From Mustelus asterias (lineage: Eukaryota): a stretch of DNA of 64,000 nt. The notes beneath the pieces were generated by a model that made no database searches, was not told the origin of the DNA, and saw only the letters and a list, made by a program, of their open reading frames with translations. Location: positions 50,282,001 to 50,346,000 of the forward strand of contig NC_135817.1 of the NCBI RefSeq assembly GCF_964213995.1. Direction: 5' to 3'. The translations under genes were made by a program, and so were the position numbers. This document shows, one piece after another, positions 1-54,726 of the stretch (positions within the stretch are counted from its first letter, which is position 1; every line of letters begins with the position of its first letter).

Positions 1-309
1 ACATTTGATTTCGAAGGAAGTAGATGTTTTTTGAGTGAAGATGGTATTTTTGTACCCGGGGATGGTGGGAATCTGGAACTCAAAAGAGGCCGAAACCCTA
101 ATCGCACTGAAAAAGTACACAGTGATACCACAAAATCCAGAACCACAGCCCGAGAGCTGTAAAGGGGCATCAGGTGGGATAACCCATTGCAGCCGGTACA
201 GACATAATGAGCTGAACGGCCTCCATCTCCACAATAAATCTTCTCATGTTTCACAGGTCATTACATCTACACTTCAACCCATTGTGTGGACAGGTTGGTG
301 AGGGGTTGA

Positions 310-1220
310 GTGCGAGCCGGCGCAGGGCTGTGTGTGGGCTGGCGCGGGGCTGTGCGCGGGCTGGCGCGGGGCTGTGCGCGGGCCTGTGCGCGGGGCTGTG
401 CGTGGGCCTGTGCGCGGGGCTGTGCGCGGGGCTGTGCGCGGGCTGGCGCGGGGCTGTGCGCGGGGCTGTGCGCGGGCTGGCGCGGGGCTCTGCGTGGGGC
501 TGTGCGCGGACTGTGCGCGGGGCTGTGCGCGGGCTGGCGCGGGGCTGTGTGCGGGCTGGCGCGGGGCTGTGCGCGGGCTGGCGGGGGCTGTGCACGGGCT
601 GGCGCGGGGCTGTGCGCGAGCTGGCGCGGGGCTCTGCGTGGGGCTGTGCGCGGGCTGTGCGCGGGCTGTGCGCGGGCTGGCGTGGGGCTGTGCGCGGGCT
701 GGCGCGGGGCTGTGCGCGGGCTGGCGCGGGGCTGTGCGCGGGCTGGCGCGGGGCTGTGTGCGGGCTGGCGCGGGGCTGTGCGCGGGCTGGCGCGGGGCTG
801 TGCGCGGGCTGGCGGGGGCTGTGCGCGGGGCTCTGCGCGGGGCTGTGCGCGGGCTGGCGCGGGGCTGTGCGCAGGGCAGTGTGCAGGCTGGCGCGGGGCT
901 GTGCGCGGGGCTGTGTGCGGGCTGGCGCGGGGCTGTGTGCGGGCTGGCGCGGGGCTATGCGCAGGCTGGCGCGGGGCTGTGCGCGGGCTGGCGCAGGGCT
1001 GTGCGTGGGCTGGCGCGGAGCTGTGCGCGGGGCTGGCGCGGGGCTGTGCGCGGGCCTGTACGCGGGCCGTGCGCGGGGCTGTGCGCGGGCTGGCGCGTAG
1101 CTGGGAGCGGGCTGGCACATGGCTGGGCATGGGCTGGCGCAGGGCTGGACGCGGGCTGGGCGCGGGGCTGGGCGCGGGGCTGGGCGCGGGGCTGGGCGCG
1201 GGGCTGTGTGCAGCTTGGCG
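310..1220 (+). repeat. GC/CpG-rich minisatellite, ~22-bp unit GGCTGGCGCGGGGCTGTGCGCG with 11-12-bp sub-unit variants
   Basis: Tandem array read directly; the stop-free ORFs in all frames are artefacts of the repeat. Confidence 0.95.
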
Positions 1221-1409
1221 TTGATCAGTGGCACAGTATCAAGCTTAAGGTATGCACAGGAAACTCTGGAACAATAATACTGCCACGTCTCAACAGCATC
1301 TGGGACTTTCCCCTGGCAGAAGACCCAGCATCATTCTGCAACCGGTTCCATTCCTTTACCGGTGGCTAGGTGGATGATGTTTCAACTTGCCTGCACTCTG
1401 GGCCAAACA

Positions 1410-4240
1410 AACAATCCCGCACCAGCCTGTACACAACGCTGCACCGGCCTGCACACAACGCCGCACCGGCCTGCACACAACGCCGCACCGGCCTGCACAC
1501 AACCCCGCACCGGCCTGCACACAACCTCGCACCGGCCTGCACAAAACCCCGCACCAGCCTGTACACAAACCCGCACCAATCTGGACACAACCCCGCACCA
1601 ATCTGGACACAACCCCGCACCAGCCTGTACACAACCCCGCACCAATCTGTACACAAACCCGCACCAGCCTGTACACAAACCCGCACCAATCTGGACACAA
1701 CCCCGCACCAATCTGTACACAACCCAGCACCAGCCTGTACACAACCCCGCACCAATCTGTACACAACGCCGCACCAACCTGTACACAACCCAGCACCAAC
1801 CTGTACACAACCCCGCACCAGCCTGTACACAACCCCGCACCAATCTGTACACAAACCCGCACCAGCCTGTACACAACGCCGCACCAATCTGGACACAACC
1901 CCGCACCAATCTGTACACAACCCCGCACCAATCTGTACACAACGCCGCACCAATCTGTACACAACCCCGCACCAGCCTGTACACAACCCCGCACCAGCCT
2001 GTACACAACCCCGCACCAGCCTGTACACAACCCCGCACCAGCCTGTACACAACCCCGCACCAGCCTGTACACAACCCCGCACCAGCCTGTACACAACCCC
2101 GCACCAGCCTGTACACAACCCCGCACCAGCCTGTACACAACCCCGCACCAGCCTGTACACAACCCCGCACCAGCCTGTACACAACCCCGCACCAGCCTGT
2201 ACACAACCCCGCACCAGCCTGTACACAACCCCGCACCAGCCTGTACACAACCCCGCACCAGCCTGTACACAACCCCGCACCAGCCTGTACACAACCCCGC
2301 ACCAGCCTGTACACAACCCCGCACCAGCCTGTACACAACCCCGCACCAGCCTGTACACAACCCCGCACCAGCCTGTACACAACCCCGCACCAGCCTGTAC
2401 ACAACCCCGCACCAGCCTGTACACAACCCCGCACCAGCCTGTACACAACCCCGCACCAGGCTGTACACAATCCCGCACCAGCCTGTGTACAATCCCGCAC
2501 CAGCCTGTACACAATCCCGCACCAGCCTGTACACAACCCCGCACCAGCCTGTACACAGCCCCGCACCAGCCTGTACACAACCCCGCACCAGCCTGTACAC
2601 AATCCTTCACCAGCCTGTACACAATCCTTCACCAGCCTGTGCACAATCCCTCACCAGCCTGTGCACAATCCCTCACCAGCCTGTGCACAATCCCTCACCA
2701 ACCTGTGCACAACTCCGCACCAATCTGTACACAACCCCGCACCAATCTGTACACAACCCCGCACCAATCTGTACACAGCCCCGCACCAGCCTGTACACAA
2801 CCCCGCACCAATCTGTACACAACCCCGCACCAGCCTGTACACAACCCCGCACCAATCTGTACACAACCCCGCACCAATCTGTACACAACCCCGCACCAAT
2901 CTGTACACAACCCCGCACCAATCTGTACACAACCCCGCACCAATCTGTACACAACCCCGCACCAATCTGTACACAACCCCGCACCAATCTGTACACAACC
3001 CCGCACCAATCTGTACACAACCCCGCACCAATCTGTACACAACCCCGCACCAGCCTGTACACAGCCCCGCACCAGCCTGTACCAGCCTGTACACAGCCCC
3101 GCACCAATCTGTACACAATCCCTCACCAATCTGCACACAATCCCGCACCAGCCTGTACACAACCCCGCACCAGCCTGTACACAACCCCGCACCAGCCTGT
3201 ACACAATCCCGCACCAGCCTGTACACAACCCCGCACCAGCCTGTACACAACCCCGCACCAGCCTGTACACAACCCCGCACCAGCCTGTACACAACCCCGC
3301 ACCAGCCTGTACACAACCCCGCACCAGCCTGTACACAACCCCGCACCAGCCTGTACACAACCCCGCACCAGCCTGTACACAACCCCGCACCAGCCTGTAC
3401 ACAACCCCGCACCAATCTGTACACAACCCCGTACCAGCCTGTACACAACCCCGCACCAATCTGTACACAACCCCACACCAGCCTGTCTACAATCCCACAC
3501 CAGCCTGTACACAATCCCTCACCAACCTGTGCACAACCCCGCACCAACCTGTGCACAACCCCGCACCAACCTGTGCACAAACCCGCACCAACCTGTGCAC
3601 AACCCCGCACCAACCTGTACACAATCCCTCACCAACCTGTACACAATCCCTCACCAGCCTGTACACAATCCCTCACCAACCTGTACACAATCCCTCACCA
3701 GCCTGTACACAACCCCTCACCAACCTGTGCACAACCCCGCACCAACCTGTACACAATCCCTCACCAAACTGTACACAATCCCTCACCAACCTGTACACAA
3801 TCCCGCACCAGCCTGTACACAATCCCTCACCAGCCTGTACACAATCCCTCACCAATCTGTACACAACCCCGCGCCAACCTGTACACAATCCCTCACCAAT
3901 CTGTACACAACCCCGCTCCAACCTGTACACAACCCCGCTCCAACCTGTACACAATCCCGCACCAACCTGTACACAATCCCTCACTAATCTGTACACAATC
4001 CCTCACTAATCTGTACACAATCCCTCACCAACCTGTGCACAACCCCGCACCAACCTGTGCACAACCCCGCACCAACCTGTACACAACCCCGCACCAGCCT
4101 GTACACAACCCCGCACCAACCTGTACACAACCCCGCACCAACCTGTACACAACCCCGCACCAACCTGTACACAATCCCTCACCAACCTGTACACAACCCC
4201 GCACCAATCTGTACACAATCCCTCACCAACCTGTACACCA
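1410..4240 (-). repeat. 22-bp minisatellite (CACCAGCCTGTACACAACCCCG)n, ~128 units, inverted relative to the 310-1220 array
   Basis: Tandem array with a homogeneous core at ~1965-2458 and variant units at both ends. The reverse complement of the unit matches the first array unit at 17/22 positions. Confidence 0.95.
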
Positions 4241-4339
4241 TCCCTGCACGGCTAACGACCACTTTATCAGTTCAACTGTTCGGTGGCAGGGCACGGTTCA
4301 CCTGAAAGTTCCTGGGCATCTGTGACTGTTGTTTCCAGG

Positions 4340-9666: not shown

Positions 9667-9896
9667 TTTTTAAAAAACATTACTCCATTCTTAAAGTTAC
9701 AAAGCCAATGCTTCGAGTGTACCAGGCAGATTCGAATCCAACTCCTTCCTTGCTCCAAAAATCAAATTTAAATTCAATCCAATTCATTGTCCCCTAAAGA
9801 GAGACAAACACGATCCCAAGCTGACAAGTTAAGGCATTGCACACAATCTTGGGCTTGAGCCGATGCTTGATCTTAGCCAAAAGACCGAGAGGCTAT
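9667..9896 (-). mobile_element. U2 snRNA-derived retrocopy / SINE-like element (divergent full-length U2 variant)
   Basis: 9896-9866 matches U2 nt 1-31 at 28/31. It then shows CTTGTCAG (U2 CTTATCAG), a stem IIb-like GTCTCTCTTTAGGGGAC, an exact Sm-site context GATTTTTGGAGCA (9763-9751) and stem III/IV-like hairpins. It sits inside a decayed CR1. Confidence 0.8.
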
Positions 9897-49217: not shown

Positions 49218-50242
49218 ATGGCTGGTATGAGTGGGAGGACAGTATACTGCATTTGGTGTGGGATGTGGGGGTTCCTGGAGACGACTTGCCTCCCGGAAGT
49301 CCATATCTGTGCCAGATGTGTGGAACTGCAACTCCTGAAGAATCGTGTAAGGGAGCTGGAGCTGAGGCTCGATGAACTCAGTTTAGTTAGGGAAAATGAG
49401 AGATTAATAGAAGTTATAGTCAGGTAGTGACACCAGCGTCTCGGAAGGAAGATACGTGGGTCACAGTTAGGAGGGGTAATAGTCAGAAGGGTGATGTGCC
49501 AGAAAGTACCCCAGTGGCAGTCTCCCATAAAAGAAAGGGATGGGCAACAGATGGGAGAAGGGAAGGGAGTGAGCAGTCTGTGGAGGGATCCCCTGTGGTT
49601 GTCCCCCTCCAAAATAGGTATATTGTTTTGGATTCTGTGGAGGGGAATGACCCTCCAGGGGTAAGCCACGAGGACCAGATCGCCTCCACGGAGACAGGCT
49701 CAGGGGTCCGGAAGGGAAAGAAGGGGTTTAGGAGAGCGATAGTTGTGGGGGACGCAATGGTTAGAGGCACGGACAGGCGGTTCTGTGGGAGTGAACGAGA
49801 ATCCAGGATGGTAGTCTGCCTCCCTGGTGCCGGGGTACTGGATGTCTCCGAGAGGGTAGGAAGCATATTTAAAAAGGAAGGTAGTCAAACGGATGTGATT
49901 GTACACATTGGTGAAAATGATGTAGGTAGGAAGAGCAGGGGGGTCATACGAGAGAAATTCAGGGAGTTGGGTGCTAGGCTAAAAAGTAAGGCCTCCAGGG
50001 TAGCAATCTCTGGACTGCTCCCGGTGTCTAGTGCAAGTGAGGCTCAGAACAGGGAGATTCTACAGTTGAACGCGTGGCTAAAGGACTGGTGCAAGAGGGA
50101 GGGTTTTAAATTCATAGATAACTGGGAAATCTTCAAGTCAGGATGGCAACTGTTCAGAAAGGATGGGTTACACCTCAACTGGAAGGGAGCAAATATCCTG
50201 GCTGAGAGTTTTGCTAGAGTGTTTCGGCAGGATTTAAACTAG
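49218..50242 (+). pseudogene. CR1 ORF1 (zinc-finger CxxC..CxxC, coiled coil, SGNH esterase), frameshifted near 49410-49427
   Basis: MAGMSGRTVYCIWCGMW...CARC...LELRLDEL, then a stop at 49427; continues in another frame to IVVGDAMVRG...DGLHLN. Confidence 0.85.
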
Positions 50243-50243
50243 T

Positions 50244-53165
50244 GTGGCAGGGGGGGGTGGGGAACAAAACAGGAGGTCAGTAAATACTGAGGCTGGGGTT
50301 GAGCTGGGGGCCAGGGCAAGGCTAGCTAAGAAGAGGAGCACTCTGGAGCAGGATGACCTGAGTGGGCCTGGAGGTCTGGAGTGCATCTGCTTCAATGCGA
50401 GGAGCGTAACGGGTAAAACAGACCAACTTAGGGCATTAATGCTTATGCGGAATTTGGATGTGGTTGCGGTGACGGAAACTTGGTTAAAAGGACAGGACTG
50501 GCAGCTGAATATTCCGGGGTATAAGTGTTTTAGGCGAGACAGAGGAGGGGCTAAAAAAGGTGGGGGAGTAGCGATATTAGTTAAGGAGCATATTACCGCG
50601 GTGCAGAGGGTAGACAACTTAGAGGGGTCATGTACTGAGTCGCTGTGGGTGGAACTCAGAAACAGGAAGGGTGCAGTCACTATGCTGGGGGTGTACTACA
50701 GACCACCCAACAGCCCACGGGAAGTGGAGGAAAGGATATGTCAGGAGATTCTGCATAGGTGCAGAAAAAATAGGGTTGTTGTAGTGGGGGACTTTAATTT
50801 CCCTGGCACAGACTGGAAAGTGCTTAGAGCTGGGGGTCCGGACGGGGAGGAATTTGTAAAATGCGTACTGGAAGGTTCTTTGGAACAGTATGTAGATAGC
50901 CCGACTAGAGAGGGGGCTATACTGGACCTAGTTCTGGGAAATGAGCCCGGTCAGGTCGTCAAAGTTTCGGTAGGGGAACATGTGGCAAATAGTGACCACA
51001 ACTCTGTTAACTTTAGGATAGTAATGGACAAGGATGAGTGCTGTCCTACGGGCAGGGTGCTAAATTGGGGGAAGGCTAACTATAGCCGGATTAGGCAGGA
51101 ATTGGTGGATGTTGATTGGGAGAGGATGTTCGAGGGTAAGTCCGCGTCTGGCATGTGGGAGTCTTTTAAGGAACTATTGATAAGGCTGCAGGATAGGCAT
51201 GTGCCTGTAAAAAGGAAAGATAGGAAAGATAGGATTCGAGAACCGTGGATAACCAGGGAAATTGAGGATCTGATTAAAATGAAAAGGGAGGCGTACGTTA
51301 AGTCCAGGCAACTGAAAACAGATGGAGCTCTGGAGGAATACAGAGAGAGTAGGAAAGAACTCAGATGGGGAGTTAGAAGGGCAAAAAGAGGTCACGAGAT
51401 GTTCTTGGCAGGCAGGATTAAGGAGAATCCTAAGGCATTCTATTCATACGTTAGGAACAAAAGAGTTGTCAGGGAGAGAATTGGACCTCTCAGGGACAAA
51501 GGAGGGGAATTATGCTTAGAACCCAAGGGAATAGGGGCGATCCTAAATGAATACTTTGCATCGGTATTCACGAAGGAGAGGGGCGTGTTAACCGGGAGTG
51601 TCTCGGAGGGAGGTGTTGACCCGTTAGAGAAAATCTCCATTACAAGAGAGGAAGTGTTAGGTTTTTTAGGGAACATTAAAACTGACAAAGCCCCAGGGCC
51701 TGATGGCATCTATCCTCGACTGCTCAGGGAGACGAGAGATGAAATTGCTGGGACTCTGACGGAAATCTTTGTCGCTTCTTTGGACACGGGTGAGGTCCCT
51801 GAGGATTGGAGGATAGCGAATGTGGTCCCGTTGTTTAAGAAGGGTAGCAGGGATAACCCAGGAAATTATAGGCCGGTGAGCTTGACGTCCGTGGTAGGGA
51901 AGTTGTTGGAGAGGATTCTTAGAGACAGGATGTATGTGCATTTAGAACGGAACAATCTCATTAGTGACAGACAGCATGGTTTTGTAAGAGGGAGGTCGTG
52001 CCTTACAAATTTGGTGGAGTTTTTTGAGGAAGTGACAAAAACGGTCGATGAAGGAAGGACCGTGGATGTCGTCTATATGGATTTCAGTAAGGCATTTGAC
52101 AAAGTCCCACATGGCAGGTTGGTTAAGAAGGTTAAGGCTCATGGGATACAAGGAGAGGTGGCTAGATGGGTGGAGAACTGGCTTGGCCATAGGAGACAGA
52201 GGGTAGTGGTCGAAGGGTCTTTTTCCGGCTGGAGGTCTGTGACCAGTGGTGTTCCGCAGGGCTCTGTACTGGGACCTCTGCTATTTGTGATATATATAAA
52301 TGATTTGGAAGAAGGTGTAACTGGTGTAATCAGCAAGTTTGCGGATGACACGAAGATGGCTGGACTTGCGGATAGCGAAGAGCATTGTCGGGCAATACAG
52401 CAGGATATAGATAGGCTGGAAAATTGGGCGGAGAGGTGGCAGATGGAGTTTAATCCGGATAAATGCGAAGTGATGCATTTTGGAAGAAATAATGTAGGGA
52501 GGAGTTATACAATAAATGGCAGAGTCATCAGGAGTATAGAAACACAGAGGGACCTAGGTGTGCAAGTCCACAAATCCTTGAAGGTGGCAACACAGGTGGA
52601 GAAGGTGGTGAAGAAGGCATATGGTATGCTTGCCTTTATAGGACGGGGTATAGAGTATAAAAGCTGGAGTCTGATGATGCAGCTGTATAGAACGCTGGTT
52701 AGACCACATTTGGAGTACTGCGTCCAGTTCTGGTCGCCACACTACCAGAAGGACGTGGAGGCGTTAGAGAGAGTGCAGAGAAGGTTTACCAGGATGTTGC
52801 CTGGTATAGAGGGTCTTAGCTATGAGGAGAGATTGGGTAGACTGGGGTTGTTCTCCTTGGAAAGACGGAGAATGAGGGGAGATCTAATAGAGGTGTACAA
52901 GATTATGAAGGGTACAGATAGGGTGAACAGTGGGAAGCTTTTTCCCAGGTCGGAGGTGACGATCACGAGAGGTCACGGCCTCAAGGTGAGAGGGGCGAAG
53001 TATAACTCAGATATCAGAGGGACGTTTTTTACACAGAGGGTGGTGGCGGCCTGGAATGCGCTGCCAAGTAGGGTGGTGGAGGCAGGCACGCTGACATCGT
53101 TTAAGACTTACCTGGATAGTCACATGAGCAGCCTGGGAATGGAGGGATACAAACGATTGGTCTAG
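50244..53165 (+). CDS. CR1 ORF2: APE endonuclease plus reverse transcriptase, 973 aa uninterrupted
   Basis: FNARS, VTETW, GDFN and SDHN endonuclease motifs; YRPVSL, DFSKAFD, PQGSVLGP and FADD RT motifs. Confidence 0.95.
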   Translation: MAGGGGEQNRRSVNTEAGVELGARARLAKKRSTLEQDDLSGPGGLECICFNARSVTGKTDQLRALMLMRNLDVVAVTETWLKGQDWQLNIPGYKCFRRDRGGAKKGGGVAILVKEHITAVQRVDNLEGSCTESLWVELRNRKGAVTMLGVYYRPPNSPREVEERICQEILHRCRKNRVVVVGDFNFPGTDWKVLRAGGPDGEEFVKCVLEGSLEQYVDSPTREGAILDLVLGNEPGQVVKVSVGEHVANSDHNSVNFRIVMDKDECCPTGRVLNWGKANYSRIRQELVDVDWERMFEGKSASGMWESFKELLIRLQDRHVPVKRKDRKDRIREPWITREIEDLIKMKREAYVKSRQLKTDGALEEYRESRKELRWGVRRAKRGHEMFLAGRIKENPKAFYSYVRNKRVVRERIGPLRDKGGELCLEPKGIGAILNEYFASVFTKERGVLTGSVSEGGVDPLEKISITREEVLGFLGNIKTDKAPGPDGIYPRLLRETRDEIAGTLTEIFVASLDTGEVPEDWRIANVVPLFKKGSRDNPGNYRPVSLTSVVGKLLERILRDRMYVHLERNNLISDRQHGFVRGRSCLTNLVEFFEEVTKTVDEGRTVDVVYMDFSKAFDKVPHGRLVKKVKAHGIQGEVARWVENWLGHRRQRVVVEGSFSGWRSVTSGVPQGSVLGPLLFVIYINDLEEGVTGVISKFADDTKMAGLADSEEHCRAIQQDIDRLENWAERWQMEFNPDKCEVMHFGRNNVGRSYTINGRVIRSIETQRDLGVQVHKSLKVATQVEKVVKKAYGMLAFIGRGIEYKSWSLMMQLYRTLVRPHLEYCVQFWSPHYQKDVEALERVQRRFTRMLPGIEGLSYEERLGRLGLFSLERRRMRGDLIEVYKIMKGTDRVNSGKLFPRSEVTITRGHGLKVRGAKYNSDIRGTFFTQRVVAAWNALPSRVVEAGTLTSFKTYLDSHMSSLGMEGYKRLV

Positions 53166-54113: not shown

Positions 54114-54258
54114 GTAACTCATTTTAATTTTTAAATCAAAAACAATGCGGAACTTTCAAGCGATGCTCGACTCAAAGCCTCTGTGCTCGTACCGTTTTCT
54201 CTGGTTAGGATTGGCTCCTTTACAATCTTTCACTTTACCTACTGGGGAACTGTTACAG

Positions 54259-54381
54259 GTCTACTGGGTCCCACTCTGCGAGCAGAAGTCGGAGATACCT
54301 TAAAGATCCATTTCAAGAATAAGGCTACTTATCCCGTCAACATTCGCCCGCAGGGAATCATGCAGGGACAATCAGCTGAGG
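54259..54381 (+). CDS. F5: Factor V-like exon 3, GLLGPTLRAEVGDTLKIHFKNKATYPVNIRPQGIMQGQSAE(G)
   Basis: TACAG acceptor, GTAAGG donor, 123 nt. GLLGPTL.AEVGD..K.HFKNKA....I.PQGI fits FV better than FVIII, ceruloplasmin or hephaestin. Confidence 0.85.
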
Positions 54382-54428
54382 GTAAGGTTGGATTGAATTA
54401 TTTGTCCAAGTGTATGCCCCGCGCCGAG

Positions 54429-54577
54429 TTTATTTTTTTAAATACTTTTCCAATTCAATCAAATCAAATTCAGAGTCTCAACAAGTTGAGACATTTCCGA
54501 TCCAGGCTGACAAGACAGGGCGAGCGACCAAACCACCCTGTCCTGATCCACATGAGCCAAGCTGATTGGAGAAGGGG
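54429..54577 (-). mobile_element. Second, more divergent U2-like element in F5-like intron 3
   Basis: Shares the CTTGTCAG.{2,3}GGATCG, GTCTC...GAGAC hairpin and GAATTxGATT core with 9667-9896; degenerate U2 head CTTCTC..TTGGCT..GATCAGG; A-rich 3' end. Confidence 0.6.
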
Positions 54578-54726
54578 GAGGTTCCTCCTCCAAGACTAAA
54601 GCATTGGTTTACTGCTCAAGAGTTTGAATTCAGTGGGGTTGATTTGCAAGTTTCATTGTGAGGAGGGCAAATATGCGTTGTTTCAAGGTAGTGCCAGATT
54701 CTCCTGAACTATGAAATCACTGAAGT

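Follow-up and report, generated by a model that had tools for sequence, protein, structure and literature searches.

The element at positions 9667 to 9896 on the minus strand of the window (the whole stretch of 64,000 nucleotides of Mustelus asterias DNA that was analyzed) is a dead copy of an old family of short retroposons derived from U2 snRNA. In the reading that we prefer, with a probability of about 0.7, this family is SINEU-like, was mobilized by a LINE of the Keno type, and had master copies that were transcribed from U2 promoters after landing at U2 nt 37/38. The presence of a U2-like element on this strand, as claimed in an earlier note made from the sequence alone, is confirmed by the Rfam U2 model (RF00004), of which positions 1–192 align with the element from end to end with a score of 33.3 bits and an E-value of 1.5e-4. 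This score is below the gathering score of 46 bits, and at the gathering threshold Rfam gave no match in the window. The copy carries the sole U2 head within the 64 kb.

The individual features, all on the minus strand, were compared with the genome's own U2 genes, which are found in tandem arrays on contig C24. The head, including stem I (9866 to 9896, U2 nt 1–31), agrees with own U2 at 28 of 31 positions, which is the count originally given, and the family majority is the same as U2 over nt 1–30. It is followed by an added segment (9848 to 9865) and by a diverged homologue of U2 nt 23–52 (9821 to 9850), which together with family nt 46 folds into a hairpin whose register is that of U2's branchpoint-interacting stem-loop (BSL); at the tip of this hairpin the branch-point recognition hexamer (9835 to 9840) is GCAATG instead of GTAGTA. 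The earlier note regarded U2 nt 32–44 as replaced by a 37-nt stem-loop, but family nt 47–76 align to U2 nt 23–52 without gaps (25, 23, and 20 of 30 positions in subfamilies C, A, and B, respectively), and the hexamer has diverged in register. Of 30 aligned copies, 3 have the GGCT arm of the supposed stem-loop, GGAT being the majority sequence, and the predicted folds pair otherwise. The net gain after the head is 24 nt in the window copy, and homology with U2 continues to the U2 3′ end. The stem IIb homologue (9789 to 9805) has 6 of 6 pairs in the majority, but the compensation once seen in it is not real, since own U2 already has GTCCCT/GGGGAC and the change in the family is one-sided. The position of the Sm site (9755 to 9763) is canonical in the window copy, in keeping with the exact site reported, but is non-canonical in 51 of 61 copies, with A(T)4-6G in only 10; in the family majority the A of the site is replaced by G. 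The stem III homologue (9714 to 9745) has four broken pairs in the window copy, and a shortened stem IV homologue (9681 to 9711), with an 8-nt deletion, reaches the U2 3′ end. The family tail (9667 to 9680) consists of a short A run, a T run, and an A run, resembling the 3′ end of Keno; the T6 and A5 noted there are present, but the proposed terminal stem requires a G at tail position 3 that occurs in just 6 of 61 copies.

The window copy belongs to subfamily B and is much decayed. Its identity to the majority built from 34 copies of this subfamily is 89%, compared with a mean of 93%, and it is the most diverged of the 34; 9 of 46 majority pairs are broken in it, and of the 12 pairs of the BSL-register hairpin, all of which are present in the subfamily B majority, it has lost 3. 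The whole copy folds no better than shuffled sequences (z of +0.47 and +0.84 in two runs), and its first 100 nt fold better than shuffles (z of −2.6). A search for repeats or a target-site duplication (TSD) around it found none, any recognizable duplication no longer being present. U2-like upstream sequence is absent at this copy, and two U2 upstream queries did not have the locus among their listed matches (for the main type, the best 40 of 66).

A search of the same genome with the window copy gave 2,736 first-look candidates. The best 39 non-self matches are 81–88% identical and near full length, and lie on many contigs in unrelated flanks; other family members as queries gave 2,510–3,625 candidates. 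It should be noted that these counts are lower bounds biased to full-length copies, that 40 matches were scored per search, and that best-scoring matches over-represent full-length copies and starts at +1. Tails and TSDs were examined in 61 copies from 56 loci. A T run and then an A run follow the U2 3′ end in 47 of the 61, and TSD scores of at least 11 were obtained for 10 of these 61 old copies as compared with 2 of 301 shuffled pairings, most of the duplications starting in an A run; TSDs are missing from most old copies, the one in the window included. At 5 of 56 loci there are two or more U2 heads, the elements being stacked at each other's tails. The candidates number in the thousands and are dispersed, a derived structure is common to them, and there are tails, TSDs, and subfamilies; the suggestion of a U2-derived SINE family, as opposed to a lone decayed pseudogene, is borne out by these observations.

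The copies sort into subfamilies C, A, and B, which are 76, 75, and 71% identical to own U2 over nt 23–187, respectively, while nt 1–30 are identical to present U2. In subfamily C the hexamer is GTAATG, in A and B it is GCAATG, and the junction of head and body is common to the members of each family and not variable. No family copy is above about 96% identity to the majority. DNA runs of seven studies on six coded organisms, one of them possibly the source sample, hold half or more of the sampled family words, and the family is therefore not limited to one sample; no RNA run is listed at this level, and six possible RNA runs have small shares. The majority has T4 and T5 runs, and words resembling boxes A and B, as judged by eye, are 19 nt apart. 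The T5 run at the Sm-site position is an expected stop for Pol III, and transcription of the family by this polymerase is unlikely because of the internal T4 and T5 runs. Older composite U2-headed variants were also encountered (L140, L142, L146, L151, L154, L155, L018, and L022), often in tandem stacks, with shorter bodies that stop before the Sm site and with internal duplications. A cluster of four copies (L294, L299, L306, and L313, G000:C11:103.38-103.40 Mb) is a passive duplication, element and flanks having diverged alike; the repeat that holds this cluster appears to contain a tRNA gene.

The behavior of the predicted structure differs within and between subfamilies. Among 30 aligned copies there is no covariation (0.125 compared with 0.130 for shuffled alignments, 447 of 500 shuffles being as high), and the difference from the majority is 6.8% at paired sites, 5.4% at unpaired sites, and 19.9% at CpG-like sites, the pair set in this comparison including five mis-registered pairs. 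The lack of covariation and the similar mutation of paired and unpaired sites indicate that individual copies decay neutrally. Comparison of the subfamily majorities shows that stems I, IIb, and III persist; the pair at the tip of stem III, G-C in U2, is A-T in A and C and is C-G, or T-G from CpG decay, in B. Stem IIa is degraded, with 4 of 6 pairs in B, two of them wobble. Pairing of U2 nt 22–33 with nt 37–48 is possible at 10 of 12 positions in U2, 11 in C, 10 in A, and all 12 in both B and a young relative described below; pair types change in this hairpin, at several positions on both sides, and nine more pairs are added to it from the added segment. Compared with shuffles, the majority folds have z values of −3.4 (B), −1.2 (A), and −7.0 (young family). 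Preservation of structure despite sequence change, as claimed in the earlier note, thus holds between subfamily majorities, where paired changes are found, but not among copies, and the pairs then cited are mostly not the conserved ones. In yeast U2, U44A (human nt 43) is a BSL-stabilizing change, according to the available part of PMC13019295, and subfamily B carries the equivalent change. These sequence comparisons suggest that the RNA of the master copies was under selection for its fold, and the hairpin might, hypothetically, have kept the SINE RNA from disturbing splicing.

The probable partner is found in the U2 genes themselves. One U2 array holds a 5.6-kb LINE with ZCCHC3-type ORF1 RNA-binding and zinc-knuckle domains and with APE endonuclease, reverse transcriptase, and zf-RVT pieces, the tail of which abuts U2 nt 38. 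Judged from its sequence, it fits Keno as described in the accessible parts of PMC4640811 and PMC4494074, and its insertion site adjoins the published site of Keno and Utopia, for which the downstream U2 begins at nt 39 in the numbering of the former paper (PMC4640811, in the part available). This LINE has a U2 head of its own, and the next 14 bases match family nt 36–49, which lie in the added segment, at 11 of 14 positions in a fixed register (p of about 4e-5 under equal base frequencies), as compared with 5 of 14 for U2 itself. Its 3′ end has a T run before the A tail, resembling the tails of the SINEs. The likeness to Keno consists of these 14 nt at the 5′ end and the short tail motif; no convincing alignment was found between the interior of Keno and the body of the SINE, which is U2 and does not fit an internally deleted, non-autonomous Keno. 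Identity with Keno, which the earlier note had named as grounds for abandoning its proposal, therefore extends to a resemblance of the ends but not to the interior.

A search for an A tail joined to U2 nt 38 gave 35 matches as compared with 1 for the reversed control. From these, 30 loci were taken, 11 repeats of a uniform array were left out, and the 19 that were classified comprise 8 Keno, 7 young SINEs, 2 older dimer-type elements, 1 window-type element, and 1 unrelated. Thus, one member of the family and nine sister copies are joined to U2 nt 38. The single window-type junction (L202, G000:C8:131.97 Mb) is a 5′-truncated B copy followed by U2 nt 38–125, the U2 5′ flank being gone. Several other arrangements of Keno were observed. 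At L051-L052 (G000:C24:44.81-44.94 Mb), an 8,035-bp tandem unit is present in about 16 near-identical repeats, each comprising an intact U2, a Keno whose ORF2 is fragmented, and an interrupted U2. The 5′ end of Keno at L052:1510-1630 is predicted to fold onto its own U2 head (z of −2.1). Older Keno-like copies with a U2 head are found at L054:3640-3900, L190:1000-1250, and L192, and are preceded by sequence that we take to be a U1 5′ fragment, as in crocodilian Tx1-Mar and SINEU-2.

A sister family provides information on transcription. This SINE, which is young, dimeric, and about 330 nt long with a U2 head, was seen upstream of dispersed Keno copies; it is 98% identical to its majority, gave 2,786 candidates, has TSDs in 13 of 24 copies as compared with 3 of 226 in the control, and is possibly still active (examples are L105-L134, e.g. 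G000:C204:388421-388751). Homology to the window family is found in its second half, and the hairpin and the type of tail are shared with that family; its branch-pairing sequence is intact, and a 12-bp hairpin is predicted to bury it. Of 24 young copies, 14 start exactly at U2 +1, and in U2 arrays there are young copies in situ that follow an upstream spacer of full length. Among 47 copies of the main type of U2 upstream sequence (66 candidates genome-wide), one leads into U2 nt 1–40 and then a young SINE, and for the second type 25 matches were obtained, 21 of which reach U2 +1; what follows is U2 in 4 of these, the young SINE in 8, Keno in 7, and other sequence in 2. The young SINE is therefore behind U2 upstream sequence at nine loci in total, and promoter-fused loci include G000:C14:62.23 Mb, C21:28.064 Mb, and C24:43.060 Mb; one of the copies fused to the second type is identical to the young majority at 328 of 333 positions. 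The upstream sequences are inferred to be working promoters because of their position before intact U2 genes. In several of the fused young copies the upstream sequence is only 36–92 nt long, and these copies may have arisen from read-through transduction and not local initiation.

For the window family itself, the search for a source locus proposed in the earlier note found no copy behind either type of U2 upstream sequence: none among 47 of the main type, 21 of the second type, 21 CpG-intact copies, and 30 near-majority copies. The 30 copies nearest to a near-majority copy reach 95% at best and include no source gene; 400 kb around the U2 arrays contain one B copy, with no upstream match, and 80 kb around the second-type U2 loci contain no window-type copy. 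Capture of a promoter by the window family is therefore presumed, being carried over from the sister family. The absence fits an extinct family with masters that were purged from the arrays.

The U2 loci have additional features. In one array unit (L168:6390-10000 and L169:1-700, G000:C24:43.060-43.065 Mb), serial insertions at nt 37/38 are found in the order of a young SINE behind intact upstream sequence, a 5′-truncated Keno, a second SINE, and U2 nt 38–191, with 15-bp duplications of U2 nt 38–52. About nine array units (L164-L167, G000:C24:43.02-43.05 Mb) have stacked repeats of U2 nt 18–36 and intact upstream sequence and are missing about nt 37–49; these are possibly scars of repair where Keno cuts, and transcription of them could yield aberrant U2. 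A second type of U2 gene (L208-L212 and L251-L255, G000:C21:28.05-28.08 Mb), identical to the main type at 166 of 187 positions, has its own 250-bp spacer and has undergone heavy invasion by both Keno and the young SINE.

A sequence of events can be proposed for the window family. Its founder would have formed when the 5′ end of Keno, consisting of the U2 head and about 15 nt, was joined to U2 nt 23–187 by a template switch at a short homology. Keno proteins would then reverse-transcribe the SINE RNA into T/A-rich sites, the tails of earlier SINEs, and U2 genes. An insertion of the last kind would fuse host U2 nt 1–39 to the element and allow transcription by Pol II from +1; the head would thereby remain that of current U2 even as the body drifted. 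Masters would be selected for a folded RNA with the branch-pairing region locked in the hairpin, so that it could not act as U2.

Heads identical to current U2 would also be predicted if an SINE mobilized by Keno or another A-tail LINE were transcribed by read-through starting in host genes or adjacent elements and received a U2 head at each insertion by template switching onto U2 snRNA, which is the route proposed for SINEU in the available part of PMC4494074. The stacking of elements at tails, with two or more heads at 5 of 56 loci, and the truncated array spacer carried by some dispersed young copies are compatible with such a route, but it is improbable in view of the head-body junctions, which are fixed within each family, and of the young copies in place behind a complete U2 array spacer. 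Retrocopying of a variant U2 gene that was once expressed, a rearranged array unit having drifted as an snRNA gene and been retrotransposed passively without homing, is on the whole unlikely. The T-run tail of Keno type in 47 of 61 copies is foreign to a mature snRNA, neither the Sm site nor stem IIa survives in the majority, and there is a succession of subfamilies and a young dimeric relative that has this hairpin and tail too; no source gene was found in the copies and U2 loci examined. These points have to be set against a body with the same 3′ end as U2, the retention, with compensated pairs, of stems I, IIb, and III, family words in the DNA runs of seven studies and six coded organisms, and the roughly nine present array units with stacked nt 18–36, which are a modern look-alike of the founder that this account needs. 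The retrocopy of an expressed variant snRNA offered in the earlier note is disfavored by the same losses, by the lack of any copy behind U2 upstream sequence, and by the ceiling of about 96% identity to the majority.

It is highly improbable that the window copy is the gene, or a recent copy, of a functional variant snRNA with a new branch-site specificity. Its canonical Sm site and full U2 length would suit such a role, but no other copy among the 34 of subfamily B is as diverged, 9 of the 46 pairs of the majority are disrupted in it, upstream sequence like that of U2 is absent, and it belongs to a set of copies with no covariation in which paired sites mutate as fast as unpaired ones. A functional U2 identity was rejected from the score of 33.3 bits in relation to 46, the GCAATG hexamer, the degraded stem IIa, the presence of an Sm site in 10 of 61 copies, and the lack of an snRNA upstream promoter sequence.

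The closest known elements are SINEU-1, -2, and -3. In the accessible text of Kojima (2015, PMC4494074), SINEU is reported in crocodilians only, with Tx1-Mar partners and Mariner targets, and its transcription is left open; the account is repeated in the available parts of PMC5786205 and PMC5381603, the former of which still calls the transcription route undemonstrated. Like SINEU as described in PMC4494074 (in part), the window family is a short, non-coding, U2-derived retroposon with an A tail and tandem insertions, and its T4 and T5 runs may correspond to the internal oligo-T of SINEU. It has a U2-derived head, is less than 500 bp and dispersed at high copy, has TSDs, shares its target with a Tx1 LINE, here of the Keno branch, and shows recurrent U2 heads and copies that are about 89–93% identical to the consensus. 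SINEU-3 differs in that 50 bp are deleted internally and the 3′ end is not from U2, whereas the window family has the whole U2 body, the additional 24 nt, and a 5′ segment and tail resembling those of Keno; the target of SINEU is Mariner-N4, whereas the window family and its sisters share the U2 nt 37/38 site of Keno; and the transcription of SINEU is open, whereas here sister copies sit behind U2 upstream sequences.

Keno and Utopia (PMC4640811 and PMC4494074, each in the part available) have in common with the family the U2 insertion site, a U2-derived head, similar next 14 nt, and a 3′ end with T and A runs, but the family is non-coding, 230 nt long, and devoid of the Keno interior, and most of its copies are outside U2 genes. 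Processed pseudogenes of U2 and variant snRNA genes, for example in humans (PMC12667742, in part), likewise show full U2 length, A tails, and TSDs. The window family, in contrast, has thousands of copies with one set of derived changes, an insertion, a special tail, and successive subfamilies. R2 retrotransposons are autonomous and are transcribed by Pol I. They are promoter-less and are co-transcribed with 28S rRNA, as cited in the available text of PMC4494074, and transcription from the target gene is the inference common to both cases; the window family differs in being a non-autonomous SINE for which a Pol II snRNA promoter is proposed. No paper describing a shark or Keno-linked U2 SINE was found in the openly accessible literature, although Repbase or Dfam may list the family. 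By the published text it is set apart as a new variant of the crocodilian SINEU, which entries in those databases may already cover.

The window contains other features. At 50238-53165 on the plus strand there is an apparently intact open frame of 975 amino acids for the endonuclease and reverse transcriptase of a LINE, presumably CR1-like, and at 54135-54599, also on the plus strand, a probable exon with a multicopper-oxidase domain (Pfam Cu-oxidase_3), which we take to be of the coagulation factor V/VIII or ceruloplasmin kind. Positions 250-4300 are occupied by GC-rich, strand-skewed tandem repeat arrays with long open frames in several frames, which are probably minisatellite and not coding.

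snRNA genes have no internal promoter, and the transcription of SINEs with U1 or U2 heads has for this reason been left an open question. The sister SINE behind U2 upstream sequence offers a possible answer for elements of the SINEU type, and the named loci at which it occupies the Keno site make the question directly testable. More tentatively, at somewhat less than even odds in our estimate, these elements may be long-running parasites that mimic an snRNA, homing by the Keno enzyme, taking over U2 promoters, refreshing their heads, and repeatedly acquiring hairpins that lock the branch-site and U6-pairing regions and leave splicing unharmed, the window family being a stepwise fossil record of this change from intact U2. 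The family represents a graded series from U2 to SINE in which the branchpoint-interacting stem-loop becomes tighter through natural compensatory changes. With it, elements of the SINEU type would be known from outside the crocodilians, and the thousands of apparent U2 matches in such genomes are retroposons.
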